The notes: generated from the sequence alone by a model not told the origin. DNA of 64,000 nt from an uncultured cyanobacterium (GCA_963793265.1 CAWBZI010000001.1:1504001-1568000), one strand, 5' to 3'; positions 3,884 through 64,000 are shown, counted from the stretch's first letter. Numbers and translations are program-made.

Positions 3884-5758
3884 ATGCCGAAAGTAGAACA
3901 GCGGTTTGACTATGTAAAGATCGGGATTGCTTCGCCAGAGCGAATCCGTGACTGGGGCGAGCGCACGTTGCCGAACGGTACGGTAGTCGGTGAAGTGACA
4001 AAGCCGGAGACAATCAACTACAGAACGCTTAAGCCTGAAATGGACGGGCTGTTTTGTGAGCGTATCTTTGGCCCTGCTAAGGACTGGGAATGTCACTGTG
4101 GTAAGTACAAGCGTGTACGTCACCGTGGCATTGTGTGCGAGCGCTGCGGCGTAGAGGTGACTGAATCTCGGGTGCGTCGTCATCGCATGGGCTTTATTAA
4201 GCTAGCTGCGCCCGTGGCTCACGTTTGGTACTTAAAAGGTATTCCCAGCTATATTGCAATTTTGCTGGACATGCCTCTGCGCGATGTTGAGCAGATTGTG
4301 TACTTTAACGCCTACGTTGTCCTTGATCCGGGCAATGCTGACAACCTCTCCTATAAGCAGCTACTGAGTGAAGATCAGTGGATGGAGATTGAGGATCAGC
4401 TCTATGACGAAGATTCTCAACTTGCTGGGATTGAAGTTGGCATCGGGGCTGAAGCGCTGAAGCGGCTGCTGGAAGATTTGCAGCTTGAAGAAACCGCTGA
4501 GATGCTGCGGGAGACGATTGCGACTTCTAAAGGTCAAAAGCGGGCCAAGCTGATCAAGCGCCTGCGGGTGATTGACAACTTTATTGCTACGGGCTCTAAG
4601 CCTGAGTGGATGGTGCTGGATGTAATTCCAGTGATTCCGCCTGACTTACGTCCGATGGTTCAGCTAGACGGCGGTCGCTTTGCAACTTCTGACCTGAACG
4701 ATCTGTACCGGCGAGTGATTAACCGGAACAATCGTTTGGCCCGGTTGCAGGAGATTTTAGCGCCTGAAATCATCGTCCGTAACGAGAAACGGATGCTTCA
4801 GGAGGCAGTTGATGCCCTGATTGATAACGGTCGTCGTGGTCGTACGGTGGTGGGCGCAAACAACCGTCCGCTGAAGTCGCTCTCCGACATTATTGAAGGT
4901 AAGCAGGGCCGATTCCGTCAGAACTTGCTGGGTAAGCGAGTTGACTACTCAGGTCGTTCTGTGATCGTAGTTGGCCCGAATCTGAAGATTCACCAGTGTG
5001 GCCTGCCGCGTGAAATGGCCATTGAGCTGTTCCAGCCGTTTGTGATTCACCGGCTGATTCGTCAGGGCTTAGTGAATAACATTAAGGCCGCTAAGAAGCT
5101 GATTCAGCGGAACGATCCGAGCGTTTGGGAAGTGTTAGAGGATGTGATTGAAACCCATCCCGTGATGCTGAACCGAGCGCCGACGCTGCACAGGCTAGGT
5201 ATTCAAGCGTTTGAGCCGATTATGGTGGAAGGCCGAGCAATTCAGCTTCATCCGTTGGTTTGTCCGGCGTTTAACGCTGACTTTGACGGTGACCAGATGG
5301 CGGTGCACGTACCGCTGTCGTTAGAAGCGCAGTCTGAGGCACGGCTGCTGATGCTGGCGTCTAACAACATCCTTTCGCCTGCGACGGGTCGGCCGATTAT
5401 TACGCCGAGTCAGGATATGGTGCTGGGCTGCTATTACCTGACGGCTGAGAACCCTGGTAAGCAGGAAGGGGCCGGGCGTTATTTTGCCAATATGGAGGAT
5501 GCGATCGCTGCCTACGAACAAGGCAACGTAGATTTGCACGCCAACGTATGGCTCCGCTTTGACGGCGAAGTAGAAAACCCCGACGACGACGACACTCCTA
5601 AAGAAACCACCACAGACGACAGCGGTGCCACCATCGAAATGTACAAGTTCCGCAAGGTGCGCAAAGACGAAACCGGTCAGGTGATTTCTCAGTACGTGAA
5701 GACCACACCGGGTCGGATCATCTACAACCACGCGGTACTAGGCGCACTGGCCGAGTAG
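3884..5758 (+). CDS. rpoC1: RNA polymerase gamma subunit
   Basis: NADFDGDQM catalytic motif and zinc-finger cysteines; cyanobacterial split beta-prime. Confidence 0.99.
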
Positions 5759-5849
5759 CTTGAGATCTGAACAATTTGAATGAACTGGGCCAGGCGCACT
5801 GGCCCGATAAAGCATCGCAGTAGCAGACACGAAAAAGGCAAAGAAACAC

Positions 5850-8800
5850 ATGGCAGAGCAAGGCGAATCAAGACCCGTTATTTTTCGCAACCGCACAATT
5901 GATAAAAAGCAGCTAAAAAACTTGGTTTCCTGGTCTTTTGAGCACTACGGCACCGCCCGCACCGCTCAAATGGCCGATGAAATCAAAAGCTTGGGCTTCA
6001 AATATGCAACCAGAGCCGGGGTATCGATTAGCGTTGATGACCTCGAAGTACCGCCCAGTAAAAAGGCGATGCTAGAAACCGCAGAGGGTGAAATTCGTGA
6101 CACCGAAGAGCGCTACACTCGCGGCGAAATCACTGAAGTAGAACGCTTTCAGAAGGTTATTGACACCTGGAACGAAACCAGCGAACACCTCAAAGACAAA
6201 GTGGTCGAAAACTTCCGCGACCACAACCCTTTGAACTCCGTGTATATGATGTCTAACTCGGGCGCACGGGGAAACATTTCGCAGGTGCGTCAGCTTGTCG
6301 GAATGCGCGGCCTGATGGCCAATCCACAAGGCGAAATTATTGACCTACCGATTAAAACTAACTTCCGAGAAGGCTTAACGGTTACTGAGTACATTATTTC
6401 ATCCTACGGTGCGCGTAAGGGACTGGTAGACACCGCCCTTCGTACCGCTGACTCGGGCTACCTTACCCGCCGTTTGGTAGACGTTTCACAAGATGTCATC
6501 GTCCGTGAAATCGACTGTGGCACCGAGCGCTATATTCCCGTGCGCCCCATGACAGACGGTGAGCGAGTTTTGATTCCGCTGCAAGATCGCCTGCTGGGCC
6601 GGGTTCCGGCTGAGGATGTTAAGCATCCTAAAACGGGCGAAGTGATTGTGGCGCGTAACCAGGCGATTACCGATGATTTGGCTCAGGCCATCGGTAAGGC
6701 CAAGGTGAAAGAAGTGAAGGCGCGTTCGGCGCTGACTTGTGAAGCGGCTAGATCGGTGTGTCAGCACTGCTACGGCTGGAGCTTGGCGCATTCGCATATG
6801 GTGGATTTGGGCGAAGCGGTTGGCATTATTGCTGCTCAGTCTATTGGTGAGCCGGGTACTCAGCTCACGATGCGTACCTTCCACACGGGGGGAACCTTCA
6901 CTGGCGAGCTAGCTCCGCAGATTCGGGCGAAGCGAACAGGTACGGTGCACATTCCGACCGATACCACCGAGATGCGCGTACGTCCTTTCCGCACCCGTCA
7001 CGGTGAAGATGCGCTGGTGATGGAAGCGAATAACCAGATTTCCATGGAAACGAATGGAAAGGAGTATTCGATTTCGCTACCTCAGGGCTCAATTTTGTTC
7101 GCCAAAGAAGGCGATGAGCTGAAAAAAGGCGACTTGATTGCTGAGCTGCCAAATACTAGCCGAGTTAAGAAAGTCACTGAGAAGGCCAGTAAGGACGTAA
7201 CCTCTGACCTATCGGGTGAGGTGTTCTTTGACGGGCTGGTGCAGGAAGAGAAGACTGACCGTCAGGGGAATATGACCCGGCTGGCGCAAAGAGGTGGCCT
7301 GATTTGGGTGCTTTCGGGCGAGGTGTATAACCTGCCGCCTGGCGCGGAGCCGGTTGTGAAAAACGGCGATCGCGTAGACGCAGAAGGCGTACTCGCTGAA
7401 ACCAAACTGATCACCGAGCGCGGCGGTATTGTCCGCCTCACCGATACCTCTAATGACGGTAAAGGCGGTCGCGAAGTCGAAATTATCACGGCTTCTGTGC
7501 TGCTCGACCAGTCCGAAGTAGAAGTGGAAAGTGGCCAAGGCCGCGAGCACTACTTCCTCAAAACCTCCACGGGCCAAAAGTTCTCTTTGAATGCGACACC
7601 TGGCACTAAAGTGTCTAGCGGTCAGGTCGTAGCCGAGCTAGTTGATGACACCTTCCGTACGCAAACTGGCGGCATCATCAAGTTTGCTGGGGTTGAAGTC
7701 GCTAAGCGCGGCAAGGCCAAGAACGGCTACGAAATCACCAAAGGCGGCACCATTCTGTGGATTCCGGCAGAGAGCCATGAGGTGAATAAGGACATTTCCT
7801 TGCTGATGGTAGAAACTGGCCAGTACATCGAAGCGGGCACAGAAGTTGTTAAGGACATCTTCTGTCAGACCAGCGGCGTTGTAGACGTGATTCAGAAGAA
7901 TGACATTCTGCGTGAGGTGACCATTCGCCCCGGTGACATTCACATGGTAGATAGCCCAGATGTGGCTAGCGCTAAGAATGAAACCATCGTGAACGCAGGC
8001 GAGGAAGTGATTCCGGGTGTGGTAGCAGATTCGCTGCGCTATGTGGAATTCGTTGAAACGCCTGAAGGTGCAGCGCTGCTACTGCGCCCAGTGCAGGAGT
8101 TTGAGGTGCCTGATGAGGCCAGAGTGCCAAGTCAGTCTTCTGTGAGCGACAGTGACGATAATTCGATTAGCCTGCGCGCGATTCAGCGGCTGCTCTATAA
8201 AGACGGCGAGCGTGTTAAGTCGGTAGATGGCCTAGAGATTCTGCGGACGCAGCTCGTGCTTGATATAGACGAAGGCGGCTCTCAGCTTACGGCTGACATT
8301 GAGATGAAAGCGGATGACGAGAACGATGAGGAGTCGGCTAAGCGCTTGCAGCTTGTGGTACTCGAAACGCTTGTGGTTCGTCGTGATATTGAGGCTGACC
8401 AGACTCAGGGCAGTACTAAGACACGGCTGCTCGTAGAAGATGGTGACGAGATTACGCCAGGTGCGGTGATCGCGCGGACTGAGATTCGCTGTAAGGAAGC
8501 TGGGCAAATTCGCGGTATCCGTGAAGACCTAGAATCTGTACGGCGGGTGCTGGTGGTGCGTGATGCTGATCAGATGGTGATTGATACTGAGGGCAAGCCG
8601 CCAACGGTTTCTGAAGGTGATTTGCTGGTGGATGCGACAGAGGTTGCTGATGGGGTGCGATCGCAAGAATCGGGCCAGGTCATCGAAGCCACCGACAGCC
8701 AAATCACCATGCGAATTGCGCGTCCTTATCGCGTATCTACTGGCGCGGTACTGCACATCGACAACGGCGATCTGGTACAGCGGGGTGACGGTTTGGTGCT

Positions 8801-9927: not shown

Positions 9928-10218
9928 CTAGACGACGAATCGCTGGGCGACGGTTTCGGGTTGGATGGCGGATAGGACGACGTGGCCGGAGTCGGTGACG
10001 ATGACGGCGCGGGTGCGTCTGCCGTAGGTGGCGTCGATAAGCTGGGTGCGATCGCGCGCCTCTGAAACAATCCGCTTAATCGGTGCAGATTCAGGGCTCA
10101 CAATGGCAATCACGCGGCTGGCTGAAACAGTATTGCCAAACCCGATATTGATCAGCCTTAAAGCTACTGAATTTTGCGTAGGGTAGGTCATTGGGGTGTT
10201 AGTTTCTGTAGACATCAA
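9928..10218 (-). CDS. remA: DUF370 / RemA-family protein
   Basis: [28 protein letters not shown]...[11 protein letters not shown]. Confidence 0.9.
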
Positions 10219-10574: not shown

Positions 10575-11858
10575 TTAAGCGTTTTCCTGTGTAGAAAGGT
10601 CGGCTGTTTTAACAAATATTTTCTGAATGTGATCGCCTCTTTTCAAAGTCACCTGCAACGCATCGCCTACCTTCACTTCGTCCACCGTGCTCTGTAGCTG
10701 ATCGGCCCGGCGAATCGGCTGTCCGCCAATCTCAACAATCACATCACCTCGGCGCAGCCCGGCATCAGCCGCAGGCGTATTCGGCAGCACACGTACAACC
10801 AACACACCATTAGTAACCGGCAGCTCAATCGCGCTGTTGGGGTCTTCGTTGTTCATTTTCGCCATATCTGGCGTAAGGGTCGCAATCTGTACGCCTAAAT
10901 AAGGATGTGCAATACGCTCGCCTTTAGCCAACCGGGCCTGAATAGATTTGGCCTTATCGATGGGAATGGCAAATCCAATCCCCATCGCATCGGCGCGAAT
11001 AGCGGTATTGATACCAATTACCTCGCCTCTAGCGTTGAGCAAGGGGCCACCCGAATTACCAGGATTAATCGCCGCGTCGGTCTGGATAAAGTCGATGCGT
11101 TTGTCAGGAATGCCGACTGCCGTGCTTGAGCGCTTGAGGGTGCTCACAATGCCGAGGGTGACGGTGTTGTCTAGACCCAATGGATTGCCGACTGCGATCG
11201 CCCAGTCCCCGACAGCTACCTCATCTGAGTTGCCAAGCTGCGCCACTGGCAAAGGCTCACCCGCCGTATCGATCCGCACCACCGCCAAATCTGTAATCTC
11301 ATCAATACCTTCTACATAGCCCTCAAAAGAACGACCGTCTTTGAGCTTAACGCTGACCTTATCAGTGCCTTCAACCACGTGAGCATTAGTGAGAATATCG
11401 CCGCGTTCGCTAATGATAAAGCCGGAGCCCTGACCGCTGAGGCGTTCTTCTTGGGGGATGCTTTGAAAGCCGCCGCCTCGATTGCCGTAAGAGCCGCGAA
11501 AGAAAGGGTCATCGTAGAAAAGGTCAGGTACGTTGCGCGTAACGGTGCGCTCTGTGTCGATGCGAACCACTGCGCTACCAACATTGCGAACGGCAGCGGC
11601 GACAAAGCTGTCACCGGAGAGCGCGCTAATCGGCGCGGGGCGGCTGCTTTCTACTTGCGTGTCTGTCAGTGTATCTGTTTGAGTGATGGTTGTAGGTGGC
11701 GGGGCGATCGCCTCTTCAACTGCCGAGAGCGCCCAGGCAGGCAGCATCCAAAGCGTATTCGTCAGCAAGAACACGACGGCAGCGCTGGCCATCCATCGAA
11801 CCCACTGCCGAATTTCTCGCTTCAAAGATGTGCCGGGCAGTTTTTTTATAAAACTCAT
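10575..11858 (-). CDS. HtrA/HhoA-family trypsin-like serine protease with PDZ domain
   Basis: TNAHVV, DLAVV, IQTDAAINPGNSGGPL; N-terminal signal; C-terminal PDZ. Confidence 0.93.
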   Translation of the reverse strand: MSFIKKLPGTSLKREIRQWVRWMASAAVVFLLTNTLWMLPAWALSAVEEAIAPPPTTITQTDTLTDTQVESSRPAPISALSGDSFVAAAVRNVGSAVVRIDTERTVTRNVPDLFYDDPFFRGSYGNRGGGFQSIPQEERLSGQGSGFIISERGDILTNAHVVEGTDKVSVKLKDGRSFEGYVEGIDEITDLAVVRIDTAGEPLPVAQLGNSDEVAVGDWAIAVGNPLGLDNTVTLGIVSTLKRSSTAVGIPDKRIDFIQTDAAINPGNSGGPLLNARGEVIGINTAIRADAMGIGFAIPIDKAKSIQARLAKGERIAHPYLGVQIATLTPDMAKMNNEDPNSAIELPVTNGVLVVRVLPNTPAADAGLRRGDVIVEIGGQPIRRADQLQSTVDEVKVGDALQVTLKRGDHIQKIFVKTADLSTQENA

Positions 11859-13122: not shown

Positions 13123-14804
13123 CTGGCAACGGCATAGTCTACAAGCTGAAGCACTTTCTGCTTGAGCGTGTCTAGACCTAATTTATTGACTGCCGAGATG
13201 AATACTGCTTGAGGGTACTCGTCTTTGGCTAGCTCTAGAGCATCGGTGCTGGCTTCATCGAGCTTGTTAAATACCAGTAGAATTGGCCCTGGTGCGATTG
13301 GCATTTGGCCGAGCAGGCCCATCACAGACTGAATGTGCTCTTTCCAGGCTGAGTGTGAGGCATCGACCACGTGAACGAGGGCGTCGGCTTCGGTGACTTC
13401 TTCTAGGGTGGCGCGAAAGGCGTCCATTAGTGCGGGCGGCAGGTCTTGGATAAAGCCTACGGTGTCGGTGAGGACGAGCGATCGCACCTCGCAGCTATCA
13501 TCTTCTGCAATCTGGATCTTCCGAGTCGTCGGATCTAGGGTCGCAAATAGCTGATCGGCGGCATACACATCCGAGTCCGTCAGGCAGTTGAGCAGGGTAG
13601 ATTTGCCCGCGTTTGTGTAGCCGATAATCGCGACAGACGGTACAGAATTTTGCTGACGGCGCTGGCGCATTCTAGCCCGGTGCTCTTGCAGCTCGCTCAC
13701 TTCTTTTTGCAGCCGACTAATCCGCTTTTGAATGGCGCGGCGCTCGGTTTCAAGCTTCGTTTCGCCAGGGCCTCGGGTGCCAATACCGCCACCAAGCCTG
13801 GACATGGCCTGGCCGCGTCCGGTCAAACGAGGAAGCTGATATTCAAGCTGCGCGAGTTCAACTTGGAGCTTACCGGCTCCTGATTTGGCGCGCTGGGCGA
13901 AAATGTCGAGGATGAGTTCGGTGCGATCGACGACGCGGATACCGACCTGGGCCTCTAGATTGCGGATTTGGGCGGGGGAAAGATCGCGATCGCACACAAT
14001 CAAATTCGCTCCCAAGGTCTGCACGGCCAAAGCCACATCCTCGACCTTACCGGCACCAATCACCGTTCGCGGATGAGGGCGAGCGCGTTTTTGCGTCATG
14101 GTTTGCAGCACGTCGCCGCCCGCGGTTTCCACCAGCCGAGTCACTTCCTCCAGGCCATTTTCAAAAGCAGCATCGGTCATTTTGTCAGTCATCAAGCCGA
14201 CCAGGATGGCGCGATCGCGATCCGTATCGACCTGCTGCGCGACAAACACCCGGCGAAATTCTTCCTCTAGCCCTTCGGCCAAGTCCAAAAAATCTTGCTC
14301 GTCGAGGTCTTCTAGCGTCAACGGCTCAGAGACTTCCCACTTCACTTCGGGGTGGGGCACCAGATGGGCCAGGTAGCTTTCGCGGATGTAGCCGGTTGCG
14401 CCGCCGCCTTTGCGCTTGAAGCCGGAGCCGCTGAGGGTGAGCAGAGCGATCGCATCTAACCGCTGAATCGCCATGGCCGTGAGCACGCTATGGCTCGGCG
14501 GCTCTACCTTAAGCTGAGTCGCCACGCAGCGAATGCCGCACAGGCGCTCGGCACCATAGCGCGGCAGCTCCAAAACAGGAATTTGCGTTTTGTGCGGAGA
14601 GCCCACGCCAACTCGAATCACATGCCCGCGCCGGTCGATATAGGCACATATTGCCTGGTTGATGTCTGTACTCACAGCCGCCAAGCGCTGGGCAAATTCT
14701 GGCGTGGTAACGCGGTCAACCGGCAACCTTTGGTGATAGATTCTTCTGAGTTCTTTGAGCTGACTGGTTTTCAGCCCCTTTAGCTCGCCGTAAATTTTCT
14801 CTAT
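13119..14804 (-). CDS. hflX: Ribosome-splitting GTPase HflX (probable ATA start)
   Basis: GYTNAGKST, LFATLDPT, DTVGF, NKLD. Frame stays open upstream of TTG 14726 to ATA 14804, which has an AGGAG Shine-Dalgarno. Confidence 0.93.
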   Translation of the reverse strand: MEKIYGELKGLKTSQLKELRRIYHQRLPVDRVTTPEFAQRLAAVSTDINQAICAYIDRRGHVIRVGVGSPHKTQIPVLELPRYGAERLCGIRCVATQLKVEPPSHSVLTAMAIQRLDAIALLTLSGSGFKRKGGGATGYIRESYLAHLVPHPEVKWEVSEPLTLEDLDEQDFLDLAEGLEEEFRRVFVAQQVDTDRDRAILVGLMTDKMTDAAFENGLEEVTRLVETAGGDVLQTMTQKRARPHPRTVIGAGKVEDVALAVQTLGANLIVCDRDLSPAQIRNLEAQVGIRVVDRTELILDIFAQRAKSGAGKLQVELAQLEYQLPRLTGRGQAMSRLGGGIGTRGPGETKLETERRAIQKRISRLQKEVSELQEHRARMRQRRQQNSVPSVAIIGYTNAGKSTLLNCLTDSDVYAADQLFATLDPTTRKIQIAEDDSCEVRSLVLTDTVGFIQDLPPALMDAFRATLEEVTEADALVHVVDASHSAWKEHIQSVMGLLGQMPIAPGPILLVFNKLDEASTDALELAKDEYPQAVFISAVNKLGLDTLKQKVLQLVDYAVAS

Positions 14805-17358: not shown

Positions 17359-20300
17359 CTACTGCTGAATCAGCGACAACAACTGCTCTGTCGAAACCTT
17401 ACCGCTCGCATCCGATCCTGTCAGCAAACTATCGGCAAGATCGCGCTTGAGCTTATGCAAAGAGACAATCTTGTCTTCAATCGTTCCTTTGGCCACCAGT
17501 CGATAAATCGTCACCGGGCGCTGCTGTCCAATCCGATAGGCTCTATCGCTCGCCTGATCTTCTACCGCCGGATTCCACCAGGGATCCATATGTATCACGT
17601 AGTCTGCCGCCGTCAGGTTTAAGCCCGTTCCACCCGCTTTAAGACTGATTAAAAACACGTCGCCTTCACCGTCTTGAAAGGCATCAACACGCACCTTCCG
17701 TTGCTTCGCGGGCGTACTGCCATCAAGATACTGATAGGAAATCTTTTGCTTATCTAAATGCTTACGCAAGATTTTGAGATGATCAACAAACTGGCTGAAT
17801 ACCAGCGCCTTATGACCGTTGTCCAACAGTTCTGCAATCAGATCAGCAAACTGCTGCAACTTTGTGCTCTCTATGCCTAGCTCAGGTCGCACTAATGCCG
17901 GATTGCAGCAGGCACGACGCAGCCGCATAATTTCAGCAAGCACCTGCAAATGCTTTTGGCCCGCCTGCACCTCTTTGCCGCTCAGCTTTTCTAGCGCCTC
18001 TCTTCTTAACGCCTCGTAAAAGGCCATCTCATCATCACTCAGCTCTACAGGCAGCGTAATTTCTGTTCGCGAGGGCAGCTCCGTAAGCACCTGATCTTTT
18101 GTACGGCGCAAGATGAAGGGCTGAATAATCTTTCTAAGCGCATCGCGGGCGGCTTCGTCTTGGTCGCGCTCAATCGGGTTAGCAAAGCGGAGATTGAAGC
18201 TGTCGAGCGAGCCTAGCAGGCCCGGATTAATGAAGCGAAACAGGTTCCAGAGTTCGCCCAGGTGATTTTCAATTGGGGTGCCAGTCATGATGATTTTGAA
18301 GCTGCCCTGTAGGGCCATCACGGCTTGCGATCGCCTAGTCGCCTGATTCTTAATCGCCTGCGCCTCATCAAGCACAATGGTTTCCCAACTCACCTCCGCC
18401 AGCATATTAGCCACCTCATCCTGCTGCAAAAGCCCATAGCTACACACCAGCAGATCCTTCGGCCCCAGGCTCTCTACAAGCTGCTGCCGACTACCCGTAC
18501 CAAAGCTTTTCACCTGCAAACTCGGCGCAAATCGCTCGGCCTCACTGCTCCAGTTCATACACACCGAAGTCGGCGCAATCACTAGCGTTGGCCCCTTACG
18601 ACAGCGGCTCAGAATCACGGCGAGTCCTTGCAGGGTTTTGCCCAAGCCCATATCGTCAGCTAGGCAAGCGCCCACACCCCAGCGCGCCAGCCTAGACAGC
18701 CAAACATAGCCTTCACGCTGATAGTCTCGTAGCTTAGCCTTAAGCCCGCTTGGCAGTTTGGGCTTGATCTGCTGCGCCGTTTTAATGCGTTTGATATGCG
18801 ATCGCCACGCCTGATCAACCTCAAGCTGTTTCATACCAGCCATGGCTTCATCAAGCGCCAAAGCGGCGGTTCCATGAATTCGCACCTCGTTACTACGAGA
18901 CTCCGACACCCGGCTTAGAGACTGCAAGCGCCTGCGAAACTCATCTGTGAGCGCCAAAAACTCTCCACCTGCTAGCGGAATAAACTGCCCGGTGGCTGAG
19001 TTCATCAGCAACATAAGCTGTTGCAGATCAACCACATGTCCTTCGCTGACCTGCAATTCTCCACTGGCCGCAAACCAGTCTTTTTTGCGATGAATGTTGA
19101 TCTTAAAATCGCTAACGCCAAACTGACGAGAGATCTTAAACTTCTCACCTTCTGGCCATTCAACCTTCACCTTCTCTCCGAGTTCTTGAAGCTGCAACAA
19201 TAGCGCTAAGCAATCAGAAGTCTCATCAACTAGCCACTCTCCCGAGTCCGCCTTATACTGCTGAAGCACCGCGCACGCTCTCTTCACCGCGCTGGTATTT
19301 TTCCTCTCCATCTGTAGATCTCTCTGCGTTTGCAGACGATTACCCTCTACTTCGGCAATCACTGTCTCCCCACCTTTCCCCGGCGGATAGTAAGCACCAC
19401 CTGTCGAAAACGGGCGAACTAGCAGCGATACTTTTAGCCCTTCACCTGCGGGCAGTAAATGCACGTGCGGGGTCGCATCGGCAGGCACTTCTTCGGCGTC
19501 TGTACCGCCACCGATATCGGATTGAATGGTGACCAAGCTCGCAATAGAGGCGATCGCATCTAACACCTTTTCTTCAGCAGCAGCAGGCACCTCTAACTGA
19601 TTTCGCGGCCCCAACACCTGCGCAATTCGCTGGTGCTGCTCATTAATCACAATCACCTTTAGCCGAGTCGGCGTTTCTTTTACCACCAGCACATCAGAAT
19701 TTTTCACAGGCGGCGATAGCGCTAGGCGGAGGCGATCGCTATCCAACCGTTTCACCAACAGCTCAGGCTCACCAGCCACCACATCTACTCGCACGGTTGG
19801 CGCGTCTTCCCAAAAGACTAGGGGATGCCCGATGAGCGATCGCAATGCCTCAGCCGTAAACGTATACTTAGGCTTGGAATACTGAGAATAATAGTGTTCC
19901 TCGTACCCGACCTCTAGACCGTCGCAAACCTGTCTGTCCTGGTCAGTGAAGTAGTCTATTTTTTCAGTAGCAAGGCGCTTTAGGGCGATCGCCTTGCCCT
20001 TTGTCCAGCCACCTTTTACGCTAAGTTTTTGTTCTATTGGCGTAAGCGACCAAAAGGTAGAAGAGATAAATCGCAGCCGCCAAACTAAACGAAAGGTAGC
20101 CTGTGGAACAGCCGTCTCTTCAACAGCTTGTGGGCTCACTAAATTGGTAAGCGCGTTTAGCGATAGCTCCCAGGCAGCTTTCTTTTGAATAACACCGAGC
20201 AAAGGAAGACTTTGTGTTCTATCTCGCAGCGCAATGATATTCTCGGCATAGATACTTTTGTTTTGATAGCTCACCAACAGTTCAGCAGTCTCTAGTGCGA

Positions 20301-29165: not shown

Positions 29166-29637
29166 AGGGTTTGTCAGCAGGCGGTGGGTGTTTGTGGTGC
29201 GAGCGTTGAATAAGCCGGGAACGGTGACGGCAGCGGCGGCGGTGTTTTCTAATCGCGGGGTGTCATTAGAGAGTATTTTGGGCAGTGGAATTGATGCGGC
29301 TAGTGAGGATGATGGCCGGTTGTTGTTTAGCTTTAGAACGAGTGAGGAGAAGCAAGAGTTGTTGAAGCGATCGCTCGAAAGGCTTCCGCATATTTTCAAG
29401 GTCGATGCCTACCCCTATGAAGACGATCGGCTAAGAGCGATCGCAGTGGCAAAGCTCGTGCCTGAAGCCCGGCTTAACCGTGATACAGAAGAACTCTATA
29501 TCGAGACGATTTCACGCAGTAAAACCTCTTCTTTGCTGCTGTTGAGTGGCGGAACTAACGCCGTTGAGGAGGCGATCACGCATTTCCGTGAGCAGCAGCA
29601 GCTCAAAGACGTAGTGATGTCTACGATTACGGTTTAA
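29152..29637 (+). CDS. ACT-domain protein
   Basis: NKPGTVTAAAAVFSNRGVSLESI resembles the IlvH/IlvN ACT domain; overlaps the upstream gene by 14 nt. Confidence 0.7.
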   Translation: MEKSEGFVSRRWVFVVRALNKPGTVTAAAAVFSNRGVSLESILGSGIDAASEDDGRLLFSFRTSEEKQELLKRSLERLPHIFKVDAYPYEDDRLRAIAVAKLVPEARLNRDTEELYIETISRSKTSSLLLLSGGTNAVEEAITHFREQQQLKDVVMSTITV

Positions 29638-40700: not shown

Positions 40701-41531
40701 ACCGTAGAGCGCCAGTACAAAACCGAGCAAAATCAGCAGCAGCAAAACCAGTGGCAGCTCGAAAAGCTCAAAGAAACTCAAACCCTCCGCCAGCAGCAGC
40801 TCACCGCCCTCCGAGAATCCATTCAGCGCCAGGCAATTGAACTCCCCGACCCGCTGCCCGAAATCCCGGAAGATCTCACCCTCGAAGAACTCAACAAGTC
40901 ACTCAAATCGCTTCAGCGCAGGCTTGAAGCTTTAGAACCCGTCAACATGCTCGCCCTCGAAGAATACGAGAGAACACAGGAGCGCCTTGAAGAACTCACC
41001 GACAAGCTCACCACCCTCGAAGAAGAGCGCACCGAGCTACTGCTACGCATCGAAAACTTCACCACCCTCCGCAAAGAAGCCTTCAAAGAAGCCTTCGACG
41101 CCGTGAACGAAAACTTCCAAACCATCTTTGAAGAACTCTCCGACGGCGACGGCCATCTCCAACTAGACGACGCCAACGATCCCTTCGCTGGGGGCCTGAC
41201 GCTAGTTGCCCACCCCAAAGGCAAGCAGGTTCGCCGCCTGGCCTCCATGTCCGGTGGCGAAAAATCCCTCACCGCCCTCAGCTTCATCTTCGCCCTACAG
41301 CGCTACCGCCCCTCCCCCTTCTACGCCTTCGACGAAGTAGACATGTTCCTCGATGGTGCCAACGTAGAACGGCTCTCTAAAATGATTCAGCAGCAGGCGC
41401 GGCAGGCGCAGTTTATTGTCGTTAGCCTGCGCAGGCCGATGATTGAAGCGGCTGAGCGAACCATTGGTGTGACGCAAGCCCGTGGGGCTTATACCCAGGT
41501 GTTAGGGATCAACTTAGCCAAAGCGACCTAA
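37752..41531 (+). CDS. smc: Chromosome segregation protein SMC
   Basis: GPNGSGKSN, hinge GRATFLPLNKI, MSGGEKS, FDEVD; coiled coils. Confidence 0.97.
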   Translation: MHVKRVELSNFKSFGGATDVPLLEGFTVISGPNGSGKSNILDSLLFCLGLASSRGMRAERLPDLVNQNQAKRRSTVETTVTATFDISDVTDMLITEEEEERSESDDFEEFQEAPEPVAEDEPANIEAGIEVEVLAARNGQNGSGNITQNGNGIATPVPPGSPSQTAEVPHEWKVTRRLRVTAQGTYTSNYYINGEPCTLNQLHEQLQRFRIYPEGYNVVLQGDVTSIISMNARERREIIDELAGVASFDRKINQAKGKLDVVKDREERFRIVETELIAQLERLDQDRKKAEKYKQIKATLQEKQTWEGVMQWRSQTKQAANLESQIAKGHTEGEAIEQKIVVLTEQMEKTAAELTVLNAKVKALGEEEYLALQAKLATQEAELRQLVRQEETLKESSKTLTTQLADIQGGIQNQEGELEMLSRRLKALTEEELAQIVEGRDKAAADLEAKREETNAIAGQSQAWVQQQTDLRKQVEALLSQLEPQRSERVRLQERINQLEAQTTSQREALAKLETEMTQAGGVSESSSEESGMAQAADAGQANIQTLAQAVADIEADLQTQTQTLNRLLQEQREKQRELDRLEAQEQAIKESQGTQATEALKRSGLDGLCGIVAELGRADKKFQLALEISAGGRMGFMVVEDDRVASRGIDLLKQKRAGRATFLPLNKIRVPNFRPADKWNRPDGFIDYAVNLIECDDKYADVFAFVFGSTVVFDTLSAARQNLGKYRMVTLEGEILESSGAMTGGSLSRRGRLHFGTVAAGESQEAKGLRDRLEEINAILRRCEQKVNQLTMKAKEKSKALIEARQNYRENELKANQAASQRQAIEQRLNQAKEQLARADQEHADARKRLEEIEQALPEQEQLLAQKRQELDELEKSQTHSEWQQAQGLVRVLETQLNEQQQRLRTAEKQQQDLAAQQQRLQEKVQRDTEQIGSLRRQQQAQVDQTSEVAQQQQALQESIAQSKGAIAILDDQLKQEKNARDTVERQYKTEQNQQQQNQWQLEKLKETQTLRQQQLTALRESIQRQAIELPDPLPEIPEDLTLEELNKSLKSLQRRLEALEPVNMLALEEYERTQERLEELTDKLTTLEEERTELLLRIENFTTLRKEAFKEAFDAVNENFQTIFEELSDGDGHLQLDDANDPFAGGLTLVAHPKGKQVRRLASMSGGEKSLTALSFIFALQRYRPSPFYAFDEVDMFLDGANVERLSKMIQQQARQAQFIVVSLRRPMIEAAERTIGVTQARGAYTQVLGINLAKAT

Positions 41532-48427: not shown

Positions 48428-50362
48428 ATGAACGGCGATCAAAACAAATACCCTTTCAGACAATACGTCTGGGCATTAGGCCAGGGCACAAACAAAATTT
48501 CGATTGGCACTCTTGTCGACAATCGCTACGAAGTGGTGGCCCCTTCTATTTGGCAAGATACACAGCCTGAAAAGTCGCCCAAGGTGCCCGATAGCGTCCC
48601 TAATTTTGCGCTGCCCTACCTCAAAGCGTATCCCTACCAGCTCAATTTGCCAGGCGTGTATGGCATTTGCCACCAGGATTCAGGAGAGGCAGTGCTGCTA
48701 TTGAGCAATGTTCCGATTAACCGTCAGGGCCAGCTTGCGCCTGCGATCGCTAAAGCCTGGCCGCAAGCATCCGCCTTCTATCAGGTGTACTGGCTCTGGC
48801 AAATGATCAACCTGTGGGAGCCCATGCAAGCCTTTGGCGCTGCTGCGAGCCTGCTGAAAAAAAGTAATATCCGCATTGAGTCGTGGCGCATCCGCCTGAT
48901 TGGCCTTTCCACTAATCCAGCCGCACCGACCACCGCACAGCTAGCAGAGGTTTGGGAAACCACTTACTTGCCAGAGGCTAAGCCAAGTATCGCGCAGCTT
49001 ATTAAAGATGTTTGCCAGCAGCTACGGGCTCCAAACCTTGAGCTAGCTGACGTGCGATCGCTGGTGAACACGCAGCTTTTGAAAGAAGCCGCAGGCGAAA
49101 CTGTAGAGCTTCAGGTCGCTGGGGGTACCAGCAGTGGCCCGAGCAAATCTCGGAATGAGGATGCCTGCTATCCGAGCCAAACAGAGATGCAGCGGACGGG
49201 TGCGGCAGATTTGCCCTTGCTGCCGCGTTTGGCGATTGTGTGTGATGGCGTCGGTGGGCATGAGGGCGGTGAAGTGGCGAGCCAGATGGTGGTGCGATCG
49301 CTCCAACTTCAGCTCAGGGGCCTGCTGGCCGAAGCCATGGAGCAAAAGCAGCCTATCCCCACCTATGTCGTCGTCGAGCAAATAGAAGCTGCCATTCGCG
49401 TTGCGAACAACCTCATTGCCCAGCAAAACGACCAGCAAGGCCGCGCCGATCGTCAGCGCATGGGCACCACCTTAGTCATGGCGCTAGTACTCCCTCAGCA
49501 CGTAGATACCCCGGATGGCCCTGCTGAAGTTAACGAACTCTATCTCACCCACATCGGCGACAGCCGCGCCTATTGGATCACCACAGAACACTGCCAGCAG
49601 CTCACCGTAGACGACGATATCGCCGGTCGAGAGATCAGTGCAGGTCACAGCTTTTATGCCACAGCCATTCAGCGCCGAGACGCCACCGCGCTCAGTCAGG
49701 CGGTCGGCGTTCGCGAGTTCGAGCAGCTGAAACCCCACACGCAGCGATTTTTGTTCACCACCAGCGGCGTTTTGCTGCTGTGCTCCGACGGCCTCAGCGA
49801 CAATCAGCAGGTAGAAGCCTCATGGGCTAACTACGTTGGGCTCATCGTGAAAAAGATTGTGTCTTTAGAGGCCGCTGTAGACTCCTGGATAGAGCTGGCA
49901 AATCAAAAGAACGGACACGATAACGTCGCTGTCGCCTTGATGAGCGTGGATATGCCAAACGAGGCAGAATTGCTGCCAATAGGCGCGACGAGTGGATCGC
50001 AAGGAGCCGCAGGAGAATCAAACGCGCTTGCCCGCAGCGTCGCGCTACCCGTGCCGCCAGGTCGAACCGCTCAGCGCGACGATCAAGCTGCCCAAACCAC
50101 AGACCAGATGACAGCCGCTTCTAGAGCGCTGCTGTATGGCGAAGATGATGACGATGATACGCCGCTAACCGATGAGGAGAGAGCAGCCATCGAAAACGAG
50201 GGTGAAACCGCCGGACGCTCTGCGGGTCAGAAGCTTGTGACGATTGTCCTAGGGCTAGTCATTCTAGGCGTCGTTAGTGCCGTCGGCTGGCTGCTGTGGC
50301 GCAACTTTGAGCCGCAGCCGGTCGAACCGCTGCCGCCAGGGCAAGAAACGTCGGAGCTATGA
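48428..50362 (+). CDS. PP2C-family Ser/Thr phosphatase with N-terminal extension and C-terminal TM
   Basis: NEDA, VCDGVGGH, MGTT, HIGDSRAY, LCSDGL, GHDN. Confidence 0.88.
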   Translation: MNGDQNKYPFRQYVWALGQGTNKISIGTLVDNRYEVVAPSIWQDTQPEKSPKVPDSVPNFALPYLKAYPYQLNLPGVYGICHQDSGEAVLLLSNVPINRQGQLAPAIAKAWPQASAFYQVYWLWQMINLWEPMQAFGAAASLLKKSNIRIESWRIRLIGLSTNPAAPTTAQLAEVWETTYLPEAKPSIAQLIKDVCQQLRAPNLELADVRSLVNTQLLKEAAGETVELQVAGGTSSGPSKSRNEDACYPSQTEMQRTGAADLPLLPRLAIVCDGVGGHEGGEVASQMVVRSLQLQLRGLLAEAMEQKQPIPTYVVVEQIEAAIRVANNLIAQQNDQQGRADRQRMGTTLVMALVLPQHVDTPDGPAEVNELYLTHIGDSRAYWITTEHCQQLTVDDDIAGREISAGHSFYATAIQRRDATALSQAVGVREFEQLKPHTQRFLFTTSGVLLLCSDGLSDNQQVEASWANYVGLIVKKIVSLEAAVDSWIELANQKNGHDNVAVALMSVDMPNEAELLPIGATSGSQGAAGESNALARSVALPVPPGRTAQRDDQAAQTTDQMTAASRALLYGEDDDDDTPLTDEERAAIENEGETAGRSAGQKLVTIVLGLVILGVVSAVGWLLWRNFEPQPVEPLPPGQETSEL

Positions 50363-55960: not shown

Positions 55961-58227
55961 TCCTTTTGCAGCATTTCAGAAAAGTCCAGGTTCTCCGCAG
56001 CCAGCACCAGCACCGTAGACGGTAGCCCCTCAAGCCGATCTTGCAGCGTTTGATAGTACTCAACTAGATCACCTTCAGGCACCGCGAGCCCTAAGAAGAC
56101 CAGATCAGCAGTAGCCGAAGACTTCTGCAAGATCTCATTAAACGGTCTGCCCTTAGCCAAAATAATTTCAGGCACCGCACCGATACGTAGGCTCTGAGTC
56201 AAATTATCTAGGTTCGTTTGCGCCGCCTGCGCCGCCGTATCATCATTCACCACCAGCTTCAGCCGAATCTCTGCCGAGCGCCACTGCCAGCTCGTCCGCA
56301 GCAAATAAGCCAAGATCAGCATCAGCCCGCCGTTAGACTGCAAACCACCCCACCACACGTCTATTCTTTGCTTGTCGCTGCGACCGAACAAAGGCGGCAG
56401 CAGCGACTCTGGCTGTTCATCATCCTTATCATCTCTCAAGATAATTACGTTCCGCTTGGCATCGTGACACATGCGAATCGTATTGCAATAGCGCTCAATG
56501 CTATCAGGTGCCATTTCTTCGCTATCGCCTAGCAGCACCGTATTCGGCACCAGCGGCCCAATGCCGTAGGTTTCTAATAGCTGCTGCGTCCCGACAAAGG
56601 GATCGTCAGCAGTAATGATTTTGGTAAAAGCTTGAACGCCTTTACGCTCCAAAAAGTCGCGCAGCGTCACCTGGGCTTTTTCTTGTTGCACAATGCTGCG
56701 CGAGCCGCTAGGCAAGATGCTCGCGACTGTGATCAAGCCTCGGTTATGCGTAAAAGAACGGGCCATTTCAACTAAATGCCAGCGCTTTGTGGGCGTACCC
56801 GATAAAACCAGCAGATGAGGTCGCCAGTTTTTCGGATCGGCGGTGTCGTCAATATTGAGCAAAGCCGCGCGGACAATGGTCATCCATACGCCCTGACGCA
56901 CGTCGCCCCAGGTGCTCTCAATTTGCCTGCGCTCTAGCCAAAAGTAAATCAGGCCGACAATTACCAGCGCCACAATAGTGGCTACTGGATTGATTAAAAA
57001 CATCACGGCAATACAGCCGAGTGCGCCCAGCATGGAGAGTGACCAGTGCACTTTGAAGGTGGGCCTAAAGGAAGGACTTTGTAGAAATCCCTCGATGCCA
57101 GCAGCGATGTTGAGCACTAAGTAGGTGGTGAGGAAAAACATGGAGAGGACAGGGGCGATCGCATCCAAGCTCCCTAAGCACACAACGGCCAGCACAATCC
57201 CCAACGTAAACAAAGTGCCATAGCGCGGGTCGTCGTTGGGGCCATTGCCTTTACCTAGCCATCGCAACGGACTCGGTAGAATATTGTCGCGAGCCAGCGC
57301 CTGTAAAATTCTGGGCGCACCTAAAATGCTGCCTAATGCGCTAGAGAGCGTTGCGCCCCATACGCCTAGAATGATCGTGTCAATTTTGAACTGCCCAAAC
57401 AAGGCAATCCGCTTCATCACCATCAAATCTGGATTGAGTAGCGCTTGAGAAGCCGTCGGTGTTCGGGTCACCAGAATGTAGGGAATTGCCATGTAAATGA
57501 CGTAGCCGACAATCACCGCTGCCAGTGTGCCGCGCGGAATTGAACGAATTGGATCTTTAAGATCGCCCGACATATTCACACCCGACATAATGCCGGTTAC
57601 CGCCGGGAAAAAGACCGCGAAGACCGCCCAAAAGCCAACCCTTTCAACCTGCGCAAAGTTGATGGCATCCGATGGGTCAGGGACAACATCGTGGCCGAAG
57701 AATAGGGCGATAAGCGACAGGGCAATCGCCGCCATAATGATGTACTGCGCTTTAATCGCAACATCTGCCGAAATCAGCGCCAGTGCGGTCACCAAAACCG
57801 TTGTCACCAAAGCAACTAGCACAATCGGCGCGCTGGGATACACCAGCCGCACGCTCTCAGCAAAACCAATCGTGTAGAGCGCCACTGATAGCGCCTGAGC
57901 AAAGTACAGCGGAATACCTACCGCACCGCCGGTTTCAATCCCTAGCGAGCGGCTGATCATGTAGTATGCGCCGCCTGCTCGCACGACCTTATCTGTAGCG
58001 ATCGCACTAATTGAAAGCGCTGTCAAAAACGTAATTGACGTGGCGATCGTCACAATCGCCAGCGTCGGCCAAAACCCTACCTGCCCGACCACCCAGCCAA
58101 AGCGCAGATACATGATCACGCCTAAAATGGTCAAAATAGACGGCGTAAATACGCCCCCAAACGTGCCTAAACCATTGGCCTCGTCTTTGGCCGGTAGCGA
58201 ATCGACTTTAGGTGAATCTGAAGTCAT
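55957..58227 (-). CDS. Cation-chloride cotransporter (SLC12-like amino acid permease family)
   Basis: LGTFGGVFTPSILTILGVIMYLR, GGAYYMISRSLG, FFPAVTGIM, KNWRP. Confidence 0.9.
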   Translation of the reverse strand: MTSDSPKVDSLPAKDEANGLGTFGGVFTPSILTILGVIMYLRFGWVVGQVGFWPTLAIVTIATSITFLTALSISAIATDKVVRAGGAYYMISRSLGIETGGAVGIPLYFAQALSVALYTIGFAESVRLVYPSAPIVLVALVTTVLVTALALISADVAIKAQYIIMAAIALSLIALFFGHDVVPDPSDAINFAQVERVGFWAVFAVFFPAVTGIMSGVNMSGDLKDPIRSIPRGTLAAVIVGYVIYMAIPYILVTRTPTASQALLNPDLMVMKRIALFGQFKIDTIILGVWGATLSSALGSILGAPRILQALARDNILPSPLRWLGKGNGPNDDPRYGTLFTLGIVLAVVCLGSLDAIAPVLSMFFLTTYLVLNIAAGIEGFLQSPSFRPTFKVHWSLSMLGALGCIAVMFLINPVATIVALVIVGLIYFWLERRQIESTWGDVRQGVWMTIVRAALLNIDDTADPKNWRPHLLVLSGTPTKRWHLVEMARSFTHNRGLITVASILPSGSRSIVQQEKAQVTLRDFLERKGVQAFTKIITADDPFVGTQQLLETYGIGPLVPNTVLLGDSEEMAPDSIERYCNTIRMCHDAKRNVIILRDDKDDEQPESLLPPLFGRSDKQRIDVWWGGLQSNGGLMLILAYLLRTSWQWRSAEIRLKLVVNDDTAAQAAQTNLDNLTQSLRIGAVPEIILAKGRPFNEILQKSSATADLVFLGLAVPEGDLVEYYQTLQDRLEGLPSTVLVLAAENLDFSEMLQKD

Positions 58228-59296: not shown

Positions 59297-59929
59297 CTAC
59301 CGATTTACAGGATGCTGACCGTAAAAAGGCAGCACTGATTCCCATTTTGAGCGATCGCCTCTCTCCCACCGAACACAGGCCACCGTCATCACCCCAGTAA
59401 CAGAGCCTGCAATACCCTGCCCCACCTCTGTAGTCACATTAACCAAAGGCTTCTCCCAATGAGCTAGCACCTGATTCCACTCGTCAACGGGCACCACTTC
59501 ATCAGCGAATGCTGCCTGCAAATCACCACCCGCGCTAGGCCGGTAAATCGCACCAAAAACAGCCTCTCGCTTCGCAGGCATGATCACAGCAATATCGCTT
59601 CCCTCAGCCACCGCACCCGCTGCCAAAGCCGCCAGACTAGACACCCCAAACAGCGGCACCTCCAACTGCTGTGCCAGCGTCCGCGCTGCCACCACCCCAA
59701 TCCGCGTACCCGTAAAGCCTCCCGGCCCTTTTGCCACCGCCACAAAGCTCAGGTCTTGCCAGGTATAGGGCGCAATAAACTCCATCATTTTGACGTGCAA
59801 ATGGCTAGAGACATCGCGGCCTAAGTCCCATACCTGATGCCGTTCTACAGGTTCATTCTGCTCATTACCTACCGACTTGAGCATCAGGCCAAGCTGAGGG
59901 CTGCTCGTATGAATGGCAAGGCCCAACAT
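59297..59929 (-). CDS. tsaB: tRNA t6A biosynthesis protein TsaB
   Basis: LAIHTSS, GPGGFTGTRIGV. Confidence 0.9.
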   Translation of the reverse strand: MLGLAIHTSSPQLGLMLKSVGNEQNEPVERHQVWDLGRDVSSHLHVKMMEFIAPYTWQDLSFVAVAKGPGGFTGTRIGVVAARTLAQQLEVPLFGVSSLAALAAGAVAEGSDIAVIMPAKREAVFGAIYRPSAGGDLQAAFADEVVPVDEWNQVLAHWEKPLVNVTTEVGQGIAGSVTGVMTVACVRWERGDRSKWESVLPFYGQHPVNR

Positions 59930-59993: not shown

Positions 59994-60293
59994 ATGCCAA
60001 CCTGCGAACTTTGCCTCAGAGACTGCCCGAAGCTTACCGAACATCACCTCACCCCACGCCAGCAAACTAAGCGTCAAAGCAGGCGACAGAACAAGAGAAA
60101 CCGACACGATCTGGGCCCCACTATTGATATTTGTCCGCCCTGTCACAAGCAGGTGCACACGCTATTTACTAACAAAGAGCTGGCCGCTGATCTGCACTCA
60201 ACTGACCTGCTGCGATCGCACCCCGACATGCAAAAGTTTCTCAACTGGATCGCCAAGCAAGACCCCTACAAAAAGGTACGCACCCGCCGCTAG
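59994..60293 (+). CDS. Small HNH endonuclease-like protein
   Basis: CELC...EHHLTP...CPPCHKQVH. Confidence 0.8.
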   Translation: MPTCELCLRDCPKLTEHHLTPRQQTKRQSRRQNKRNRHDLGPTIDICPPCHKQVHTLFTNKELAADLHSTDLLRSHPDMQKFLNWIAKQDPYKKVRTRR

Positions 60294-60297
60294 GTTT

Positions 60298-61335: not shown

Positions 61336-61482
61336 CCTTTTTCCCCGCTCGCTTTCCGTTTAATACAACTTATATTGATAGGATTATTCCCCTGGGTAAC
61401 CTCGTAGAAGCCTTAGTCTTTAACCCACTCGTCTAAACACTGAGTTCAACCTGTCAAGTTCAACGTCTTTTGGAGCGGCTTA

Positions 61483-62667: not shown

Positions 62668-62687
62668 AAGCCGCGTATAAAAGCACA

Positions 62688-63665: not shown

Positions 63666-63683
63666 GGGCGATCGCAACACGCT

Positions 63684-64000
63684 CTAAAACCTATATTGCT
63701 GCTCTCCTACCCACAAACTCACAGGCACACTGTTACCTTTATCATCAACTTTCACATCGACTACAAATGCTTGGTTTCCAGAGCGCTGTATGTCATTAAT
63801 TTGTGAATTGATGTCGTTACGCTGAGACTCGGGCATGTAGTAGGTTTCTAGGCCGTACTCTATGCGCCAGCCGGTATAGCGGCCCTTCAAGGCGACTTGG
63901 TTTTGCGGGAGAGACTGGGGGCGATCGCTACTCACCGCCACAGGCTCCCACGCCGTAGGTACATCGCCTTCCGCCTCATCAGGCGCTTGCAGCGTGACGT
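63684..64000 (-). CDS. GDYXXLXY-domain membrane-anchored protein, C-terminal part (runs off window)
   Basis: LKGRY...IEYGLETYYMPE...VDVKVDDKGNSVP. Confidence 0.7.
   Translation of the reverse strand, partial: VTLQAPDEAEGDVPTAWEPVAVSSDRPQSLPQNQVALKGRYTGWRIEYGLETYYMPESQRNDINSQINDIQRSGNQAFVVDVKVDDKGNSVPVSLWVGEQQYRF

Follow-up and report, generated by a model that had tools for sequence, protein, structure and literature searches.

Genes and HIP1 sites of the window

The window analysed here is a stretch of 64,000 nucleotides (nt) (G000:C1:1504001-1568000) from an uncultured cyanobacterium, whose assembly (designated G000) consisted of 5.68 Mb in 7 contigs with a GC content of approximately 0.51. 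The genes within the window included rpoB, rpoC1 (3884-5758, plus strand; TIGR02387), rpoC2 (5850-9809, plus strand; TIGR02388), smc (37752-41531, plus strand; TIGR02169), and a cation-chloride cotransporter-like gene (55957-58227, minus strand), whose match to TIGR00930 was under the cut-off. Open reading frames (ORFs), 4,958 in G000, were called using a custom script with scoring by amino-acid content; codon classes omitted ORFs scoring <10 and overlapping stretches. The element under study was HIP1, the palindromic octamer GCGATCGC. HIP1 was strongly over-represented, with 6,888 copies in the 5.68 Mb of G000, about one per kb, and 75 sites in the window compared to 2.0 expected from shuffles.

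The 75 octamers (5501..63928) were, on average, each the centre of a switch from G-rich to C-rich sequence. Comparison of the 60 nt on either side revealed that (G+T)-(C+A) fell from 5' to 3' at 65 of the 75 sites, while 9 were opposite and 1 was level (mean drop +0.27, standard error (se) 0.026). The skew at four-fold degenerate positions 3' of HIP1 was -0.43 (se 0.04) in the window. Across G000, a G-C drop over 60 nt could be observed at 5,950 of the 6,888 HIP1 sites compared to 3,244 of 6,886 random positions. The HIP1-centred flip in any gene orientation, which had been proposed in a sequence-only reading of the window, is therefore real, both locally and genome-wide.

The switch could be followed at individual sites by counting G minus C over the 60 nt before and after the octamer. 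The counts were +11 and -1 at the HIP1 site in rpoC1 (5501..5508), +10 and +2 at the first of two sites in rpoC2 (7366..7373), where the 3' side was weak, and +14 and -4 at the second (8657..8664). Further switch points were located at 10048..10055 (+16, -4) and inside minus-strand ORFs at 11704..11711 (ORF 10575-11858; +12, -4), 13986..13993 (ORF 13119-14726; +8, -13), 18327..18334 (ORF 17359-21582; +4, -13), and 30876..30883 (ORF 29827-31440; +11, -11). Plus-strand ORFs 29152-29637 and 48428-50362 contained sites at 29367..29374 (+17, -3) and 49294..49301 (+23, -6), respectively, and the site in smc (40650..40657) had counts of +9 and -6. A site inside minus-strand ORF 59297-59929 was skewed on its 3' side only (59351..59358; -2, -19), and another switch point was found close to the window end (63921..63928; +9, -14). 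In the cotransporter-like gene, the HIP1 site at 57155-57162 together with its 34-nt G-rich 5' flank and 38-nt C-rich 3' flank (57121..57200) contained G16/C2 before and C16/G5 after the octamer, exactly as had been counted earlier. All 14 sites named in the sequence-only reading shifted in G-C in the direction it stated, but 7366 was not C-rich after the octamer, 59351 was not G-rich before it, and the site named as 49293 actually begins at 49294.

Codon choice followed the same pattern. A tract of codons ending in C or A was present in smc 3' of the HIP1 site at 40650 (40658..41357, plus strand), where the codon counts of GAA 25/GAG 6, CTC 23, GCC 12/GCG 0, and ACC 13 agreed with the earlier description. 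The codon usage described before this site was half right: in 40071-40649, CAG 36/CAA 7 and GAG 16/GAA 10 were as claimed, but GCG 9/GCC 10 and TTG 6/CTC 5 were not. The rpoC1 codons quoted earlier for the site at 5501 were a selection rather than a contiguous run, as the gene reads TAT TTT GCC AAT ATG GAG GAT GCG ATC GCT GCC TAC GAA CAA GGC AAC around this position.

Genome-wide skew, controls, and reach

The metaplot of four-fold and intergenic positions was constructed from 6,878 HIP1 sites of G000. The four-fold GC skew 6-10 nt from HIP1 was +0.59 on the 5' side and -0.62 on the 3' side in plus-strand genes, and +0.60 and -0.59 in minus-strand genes. Intergenic skew at this distance was below the four-fold values (+0.24 and -0.27). 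The log-odds shifts, taken on the strand running 3' from HIP1, were approximately +1.06 for C/G, +0.64 for C/T, +0.50 for A/G, and +0.01 to +0.15 for A/T. Since the C/G shift was the largest and the A/T shift was close to zero, the change is chiefly an exchange of C for G. Of the switch between G/T and C/A described from the window, the part concerning C and G thus held, but A against T hardly moved at four-fold sites (+0.01 and +0.15); T and A do shift at two-fold sites. The base shift was present in all 14 neighbour classes listed with no context standing out, which excludes an APOBEC-like or dipyrimidine context.

Synonymous codon use shifted across HIP1 in 13 of the 13 families tabulated. 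For threonine, ACG accounted for 0.46 before HIP1 and ACC for 0.50 after it, while GTG made up 0.53 of valine codons before compared to 0.21 after. The contrast was alike in the three reading frames (0.48, 0.46, and 0.44), and Ala-Ile-Ala written with two mismatches to HIP1 gave no flip (+0.10/+0.02, n=107). An amino-acid or frame effect could be excluded by the equal frames, the intergenic signal, the Ala-Ile-Ala null, and the codon shifts within families. One-mismatch controls comprised 12 classes, each at least 300 nt from HIP1. Among them, a full flip was evident only in GTGATCGC/GCGATCAC (+0.36/-0.36, n=386), and a partial flip was observed in GCAATCGC/GCGATTGC (+0.20/-0.07) and GCGATCTC (+0.13/-0.17, se 0.07). 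The CGATCG core alone was null (n=530), and other six-base palindromes, including those holding GATC, demonstrated no clear flip away from HIP1. When 25,684 octamer pairs lying at least 250 nt from HIP1 were scored without bias, HIP1-related words took all of the top 16 places, the first unrelated word having a z of 4.6 and the lowest a z of -4.3. Altogether, the third-position skew changed sign at HIP1, the controls were null except for HIP1 variants, and the frames and synonymous shifts spoke against an amino-acid explanation; these were the three points on which the sequence-only reading had made its claim refutable, and none refutes it.

A hairpin or cruciform was rejected, since mirror positions were not complementary beyond chance, and helical periodicity was rejected likewise (best period 13 nt, weak; none at 10.5 nt). 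Extension of the palindrome was avoided beside HIP1, where positions 1-3 were less complementary (0.193 compared to 0.268 expected at position 1).

The commonest HIP1 variant, GTGATCGC, is the C-to-T product at the inner cytosine of HIP1, whose methylation (m5CGATCG) is reported for Synechocystis (PMC6105098). At the positions of GTGATCGC in G000, HIP1 stands in the relatives G053 and G020 at 14 of 23 and 8 of 25 sites, respectively, and GTGATCGC is thus at least partly a recent decay product of HIP1. It was skewed also in frames where the C-to-T change is non-synonymous, and it may itself be directly recognised. The 766 copies of GTGATCGC/GCGATCAC in G000 correspond to 0.13 per kb, compared to 0.10 (G020), 0.05 (G056), and 0.03 (G053) per kb in the stretches of these relatives; HIP1 decay by C-to-T therefore differs between close relatives. 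The half-sites GCGATCG[AGT] had a 5'-side residual of -0.27 (se 0.05, n=489) compared to -0.10 in 3,318 control words, while their 3' side was without clear excess. Several six-base palindromes were scarce in G000 away from HIP1 (GGCGCC 3, CCCGGG 5, GCCGGC 5, and GAGCTC 6), a near-absence which probably represents restriction-site avoidance. Alternative HIP words present in some strains are GGCGCC, rCCGGy, and GGGATCCC.

The skew was approximately -0.65 through the first 10 nt 3' of HIP1, the plateau spanning the first 10-13 nt, and then decayed with a tail. In the reach fits, GTGATCGC was treated as a site. A fit with two exponentials was the best, with a short component of 59 nt (1.26 log-odds) and a long component of approximately 1,350 nt (0.62). 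Restricting the model to the closest site on either side improved the fit by 464 log-likelihood units over an additive model of all sites, and sites past the nearest contributed 0.01-0.04 each at 150-3,000 nt. The footprint resets at the next HIP1. A fixed reach of 1.2-1.4 kb was only slightly better than scale-free diffusion between sites, by 16-30 log-likelihood units with clustering uncorrected. In the smc tract, the long component is unopposed because the next HIP1 (43169) is 2.5 kb off.

The earlier likening of each site to a tiny origin was not supported, as the dnaA-dnaN region goes from C-rich to G-rich and HIP1 from G-rich to C-rich. The dnaA and dnaN genes were adjacent (C5:381-384 kb), and the cumulative four-fold G-C on contig C5 had its minimum at 366.7 kb, where the skew changed from approximately -0.2 to +0.36. 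With these two genes and the switch approximately 15 kb away, G000:C5:360,000-385,000 is a likely replication origin. The two strands were compared in blocks covering part of C1, C2, C4, C5, and C6 (neither C3 and C7 nor the initial 640 kb of C1 being included), whose directions were drawn from the same skew data with a weak replichore signal. The short component was 1.19 on the lagging-like strand compared to 1.29 on the leading-like strand (difference -0.10, se 0.06), and the long component was 0.75 compared to 0.58 (difference +0.17, se 0.07). Blocks of 20-200 kb with a four-fold GC skew of 0.3-0.5 at >200 nt from HIP1, unrelated to gene direction, were also present in G000 (for example C4:60-280 kb, C1:1,160-1,240 kb, and C6:1-80 kb), and the mid-gap skew varied beyond chance (standard deviation 0.28 compared to 0.10). 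A/T moved little in this regional skew too, a make-up similar to that of the HIP1 skew.

Spread, site turnover, and substitution rates

The footprint was present in all six genus clades sampled at the rpoC locus (-0.35 to -0.59) and in 333-400 kb each of G020 (-0.43), G053 (-0.41), and G056 (-0.33). Other families were represented by a thin sample of 12 genomes with 17-60 kb each. Within it, a moderate footprint was observed in three families (G033 -0.25, se 0.07; G039 -0.20, se 0.045; G040 -0.18, se 0.09), and the 17-60 kb of G030, G031, G034, and G037 allowed a call neither way. Three more genomes, G025, G027, and G038, were left uncounted with 1, 1, and 6 sites. In the RpoC1 tree, which is based on one gene with weak support, the moderate genomes did not group with the genus. 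The contigs of the RpoC1 scan, mostly from non-cyanobacteria, contained 40 chance HIP1 sites with a value of -0.01 (se 0.04), and a plasmid stretch of Leptolyngbya NIES-3755 gave -0.08 (se 0.06). A C bias confined to the first 3 nt 3' of HIP1 (-0.40 to -0.52, all positions) could be observed without the long footprint in the plasmids of PCC 7120, PCC 6803, and PCC 7002 and in G026; S. elongatus pANL and G029 had little or none of it.

Gain and loss of sites were examined by aligning 145 kb of G020 and 159 kb of G053 to G000, at approximately 80% identity. Isolated HIP1 sites common to a pair of genomes were skewed at -0.50 to -0.57 in either member. When HIP1 was present in one genome and its counterpart had at least 2 mismatches, the skew in the G020 pair was -0.43 with the site compared to -0.06 without (n=17) and -0.58 compared to -0.085 (n=22); in the G053 pair, it was -0.54 compared to -0.18 (n=21) and -0.28 compared to -0.07 (n=27). 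One-mismatch counterparts carried the skew in both genomes in most cases. Within a closer quartet, made up of G056, G008, G042, and G050, the 14 sites present in one close tip only gave approximately +0.13 compared to -0.45 at the 49 sites shared four ways; the former value is a hand sum of three rows with 124 G/C positions, and the six G050-only sites were not scored in G050. Although few, these counts are consistent in placing the appearance of HIP1 before that of the skew. The suggestion of a process starting at HIP1 fits this result, as the signal tracks HIP1 gain and loss between genomes.

Substitution rates were estimated by maximum-likelihood fits as log rate ratios of 1-30 nt against >200 nt on the strand 3' of HIP1. 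The quartet alignment used 9 of the 20 G056 stretches as queries and covered 120 kb in three genomes and 93 kb in four; sites were kept only where the nearest HIP1 was common to the three close genomes, which left 7,703 four-fold sites, and the errors are rough (15-60 bootstrap rounds). Raised rates were observed for G>C (+0.82, se 0.27), T>C (+0.40, se 0.14), and G>A (+0.31, se 0.16), with A>C at +0.44 (se 0.25), at a flat total rate of 0.20 near compared to 0.18 far. At two-fold sites, the near and far rates were 0.159 and 0.108 for G>A, 0.114 and 0.080 for T>C, 0.060 and 0.069 for A>G, and 0.085 and 0.095 for C>T. The deeper trio of G000, G020, and G053 gave G>C +1.23 (se 0.35) and C>G -1.24 (se 0.61), with totals of 0.36 and 0.39. 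Since the long component also biases the positions >200 nt away, the ratios understate the effect. These data indicate a directional bias at a flat total rate, with the fall in reverse rates short of established. Divergence of the closest pair was slightly higher near HIP1 (corrected 0.33-0.36 compared to 0.26). With no clear rise in the total substitution rate near HIP1, added mutagenesis at the site fits less well than directional repair or fixation bias.

Interpretation of the footprint

The footprint, which is real and large, links HIP1 with unidirectional processing of DNA in some cyanobacteria, from which we infer the mechanism. Chances are about even that the footprint results from mismatch correction which enters at HIP1 and replaces DNA only in the 5'-to-3' direction. 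We infer nicking, resection, and resynthesis at HIP1, as suggested in the sequence-only reading. A nick would be made at HIP1, probably by MutL or else by a HIP1-specific factor, and would be followed by 5'-to-3' removal and refilling, the short reach resembling nick translation and the long reach an excision tract. On both strands, the strand running 3' from HIP1 would be the one corrected. If G:G and G:T mispairs are made most and recognised best, and C:C least, the corrected strand would lose G and gain C, and the template the reverse. The outcomes on the corrected strand would be C from G:G and G from C:C, C from T:G and T from C:A, and A from G:T and G from A:C. Among mispairs, A:C ranks below G:T. 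In E. coli, G:G is reported as the best-repaired mispair and C:C as very poorly repaired, while G:T is given as the most frequent polymerase error and the mispair bound best by MutS, and C:C as the least frequent and worst bound (PMC3167615). The ranking therefore predicts the largest shift for C over G, the next largest for C/T and A/G, and approximately none for A/T, which matches the observed shifts; in following the known mispair ranking, they resemble the action of E. coli mismatch repair. This chemical argument points to the 3' strand as the replaced one; if the polarity were the reverse, mispairs containing C would have to predominate.

Several results weigh against correction entering at HIP1. 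The footprint was strong across the genus and moderate in three other families, but not a general feature of HIP1-rich cyanobacteria. In five HIP1-rich families, no footprint was detected at 4-60 nt, namely in G026 (0.00, 73 sites), G029 (-0.01, 93), G032 (-0.02, 44), G035 (+0.07, 38), and G028 (+0.06, 28), and all five carry MutS and MutL. Plasmid stretches of four model strains were likewise null at 4-60 nt (Nostoc PCC 7120 +0.01, Synechocystis PCC 6803 +0.01, Picosynechococcus PCC 7002 -0.04, and S. elongatus PCC 7942 +0.02), although plasmid nulls are weaker than chromosomal ones because the time that plasmids have spent in their hosts may be short. The predicted fall of the reverse rates was weak in the quartet (C>G -0.60, se 0.53; A>G -0.15, se 0.22; C>T +0.09, se 0.11), where T>G moved in the wrong direction for the prediction (+0.22, se 0.28), and the deeper trio revealed no rise at 1-30 nt of T>C (-0.02, se 0.22) or G>A (-0.77, se 0.64). 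The mispair ranking derives from E. coli. The half-site excess is weak and confined to the 5' side, which would fit replacement of the strand opposite G-mC as proposed by Elhai, but its signal amounts to approximately 3 se and one sixth of the full-site size. Finally, no searched gene separated footprint-bearing from footprint-free genomes (MutL 24/27, MutS 24/25, xseA 22/22, recJ 22/22, Vsr 0/26, NucS-like 6/25, and C5 methyltransferase). More tentatively, HIP1 could be the entry of an undescribed one-way mismatch-resolution pathway, in which the strand rewritten would be chosen by position rather than age at about one site per kb, which would steer synonymous codon use across the genus, and in which the same G-5'/C-3' force would turn CGATCG into GCGATCGC and GGCGATCGCC.

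Recombination from HIP1, through transformation or exchange between chromosome copies, would have the same geometry, with a break resected 5' to 3', a heteroduplex resolved with mispair bias, and alleles as the mismatches. This account is unlikely, though to be taken seriously: the leading-like and lagging-like strands were similar (1.29 and 1.19), and forward rates raised at a flat total are the outcome of fixation bias. A homologous HIP1 is reported to raise integration in PCC 7002, where HIP1 was proposed to act like Chi, but the same report states that deletion of addAB left the HIP1 effect in place (bioRxiv 10.1101/2024.09.10.611283). Moreover, plasmid pAQ7 of PCC 7002 had no footprint (-0.04, se 0.045, 66 sites), though the transformation result comes from that strain, and a reset at the next HIP1 is not obvious for conversion tracts. 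Added mutagenesis would require that the strand 5' of HIP1 becomes single-stranded or that the 3' strand is refilled by an error-prone polymerase, with deamination or abasic bypass. The several rates raised near HIP1, the slightly higher closest-pair divergence, and the equivalence of G>A on the 3' strand to C>T on the exposed strand agree with it. It is nevertheless improbable, as both maximum-likelihood fits gave a flat total rate, the rise in G>C and T>C matched or exceeded that in G>A, and no neighbour context was prominent. The C>A changes characteristic of an oxidised template G did not rise either, though their rate was poorly estimated.

Selection or a protein binding preference for G 5' and C 3' of the site (an extended site, DNA shape, a hairpin or cruciform, or a translocase loading direction) would likewise raise forward and lower reverse rates, and it could account for the C bias at 1-3 nt even where the long footprint is missing; GGCGATCGCC extensions are listed in PMC4390886 (Table 3). 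A reach of hundreds of bases to a kilobase, mirror positions not complementary beyond chance, the lack of a 10.5-nt period, and a signal weaker between genes than at four-fold sites make it very unlikely. Hardly any weight is given to HIP1 as a preferred priming site or Okazaki-fragment start, whose footprint would arise from primer removal and repair at fragment 5' ends. In its 10-13 nt plateau, its reset at every site, and its 1.3 kb reach, the footprint is reminiscent of the lengths of primers and fragments, and the lagging-like strand had a slightly larger long component (+0.17, se 0.07); the short component, however, was equally strong on the leading-like strand (-0.10, se 0.06), with directions drawn from the same skew data. 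Ascertainment, by which HIP1 would arise or survive where a switch from G-rich to C-rich pre-exists or amino-acid content would make the pattern, is barely credible. HIP1 begins with G and ends with C, fitting the local bias, but orthologous positions without HIP1 were near unskewed, new sites were unskewed, Ala-Ile-Ala with two mismatches was null (+0.10/+0.02, n=107), and codons shifted within every family tested.

In Dam/MutH repair, the new strand can be excised up to the mismatch from both directions, which leaves no flip, unlike the HIP1 skew, which changes sign at the site on both strands. Vsr/Dcm repair acts at a 5-methylcytosine, where the strand is nicked and refilled in the 5'-to-3' direction. 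HIP1 resembles such very short patch repair in that its commonest variant is C-to-T at the putatively methylated C, but differs in the reaches of 59 and approximately 1,350 nt rather than a patch of approximately 10 nt, in affecting all base pairs and not only T:G, and in having no Vsr match in the genomes searched. Unlike an Okazaki priming site, HIP1 has an effect not confined to the lagging-like strand (short component 1.19 compared to 1.29), and unlike Chi, which is non-palindromic, strand-biased, and read by RecBCD/AddAB, it is palindromic. Strand-asymmetric mutation has reportedly been described by Hinch et al. in 2023 around mammalian meiotic break hotspots; these share the mirror-image bias at a cut, 5'-to-3' resected site, but are eukaryotic protein-targeted breaks with added mutagenesis, in contrast to the flat total rate here. 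As with replichore skew between oriC and ter, reported as a strand-asymmetric C/G bias with a sign change at a point (PMC7198777), C and G are biased and the sign changes at a point; here there are approximately 6,900 switch points rather than two, with a reach of 0.1-1 kb and a sign opposite to that of the dnaA-dnaN switch.

Further parallels are found in repair. E. coli Dam/MutH repair is likewise described as using a short methylated palindrome with strand replacement over approximately 1 kb, and MutH as limited to some gamma-proteobacteria (PMC4390886); MutL here, unlike that system, retains endonuclease-type motifs. Elhai placed HIP1 in G-mC-directed mismatch repair with a MutH analogue and a range of approximately 1,000 nt (Life 2015, PMC4390886). 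That model would share with the present reading HIP1 as a repair entry, a range of approximately 1,000 nt, a nick in the strand opposite G-mC, and a CGATCG core flanked by G on its 5' side and C on its 3' side. The Elhai model, as set out in the available text, explains the origin of HIP1 and predicts no long flanking skew, neither "skew" nor "asymmetr" occurring there (PMC4390886); the strong signal observed here, moreover, needs the full octamer, with 7-mers giving a weak one-sided hint at most, and the action is one-directional. The PCC 7002 study suggests a nuclease/helicase or MutS/MutL complex at HIP1 and shares the local action on DNA processing, while no sequence footprint is described in its available text (bioRxiv 10.1101/2024.09.10.611283).

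The function of HIP1 has been an open question for approximately thirty years (PMC5861425, PMC13756078). No description of a HIP1 flanking skew or strand bias was found in the literature searched, most subscription papers being outside the search, and the footprint is apparently undescribed so far. In the available texts, "skew" does not occur in Xu 2018 (PMC5861425) and concerns only sampling in a 2026 GBE paper (PMC13756078), and "HIP1" does not occur in Ohbayashi 2020 (PMC7198777); PMC5638367 likewise offered no analogue of use. Absence of the footprint from the sampled model strains may be the reason it was overlooked. It represents a large, measurable mark of directional action from HIP1 on adjacent DNA, and any proposed HIP1 function must reproduce its polarity, two length scales, and base-change signature. 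Furthermore, it provides a cheap read-out, applicable to any genome, by which lineages with the activity can be told from those lacking it and the gene can thereby be sought. As a strong local driver of synonymous codons, it would be a source of error when codon bias, horizontal transfer, or replication origins are analysed in these genomes. Repair entry at HIP1, if true, would give a long-unexplained word a role that can be tested.

Both MutS and MutL were present in G000, and MutL carries the EQHIAHERVLYE and CPHGRP motifs, which we take to mark the endonuclease type. The Vsr family had no match in 26 of 26 genomes, while the E. coli positive control matched; NucS was not found in G000 and matched weakly in 6 of 25 genomes. 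Seven C5-methyltransferase matches were present in G000, one of them with internal stops. The match at C4:630912-632336, with no nuclease among the 4 neighbours scanned, is a candidate for an orphan methyltransferase that may act on the first C of the inner CGATCG. G025 and G031 had MutS but no MutL match, at a completeness of 99% and 93%, respectively. The second recJ match of G000 (C6:55889-57079) was short, with a 488-amino-acid open frame under the family cut-off compared to approximately 800 amino acids in most relatives, and this gene may be broken or misassembled.

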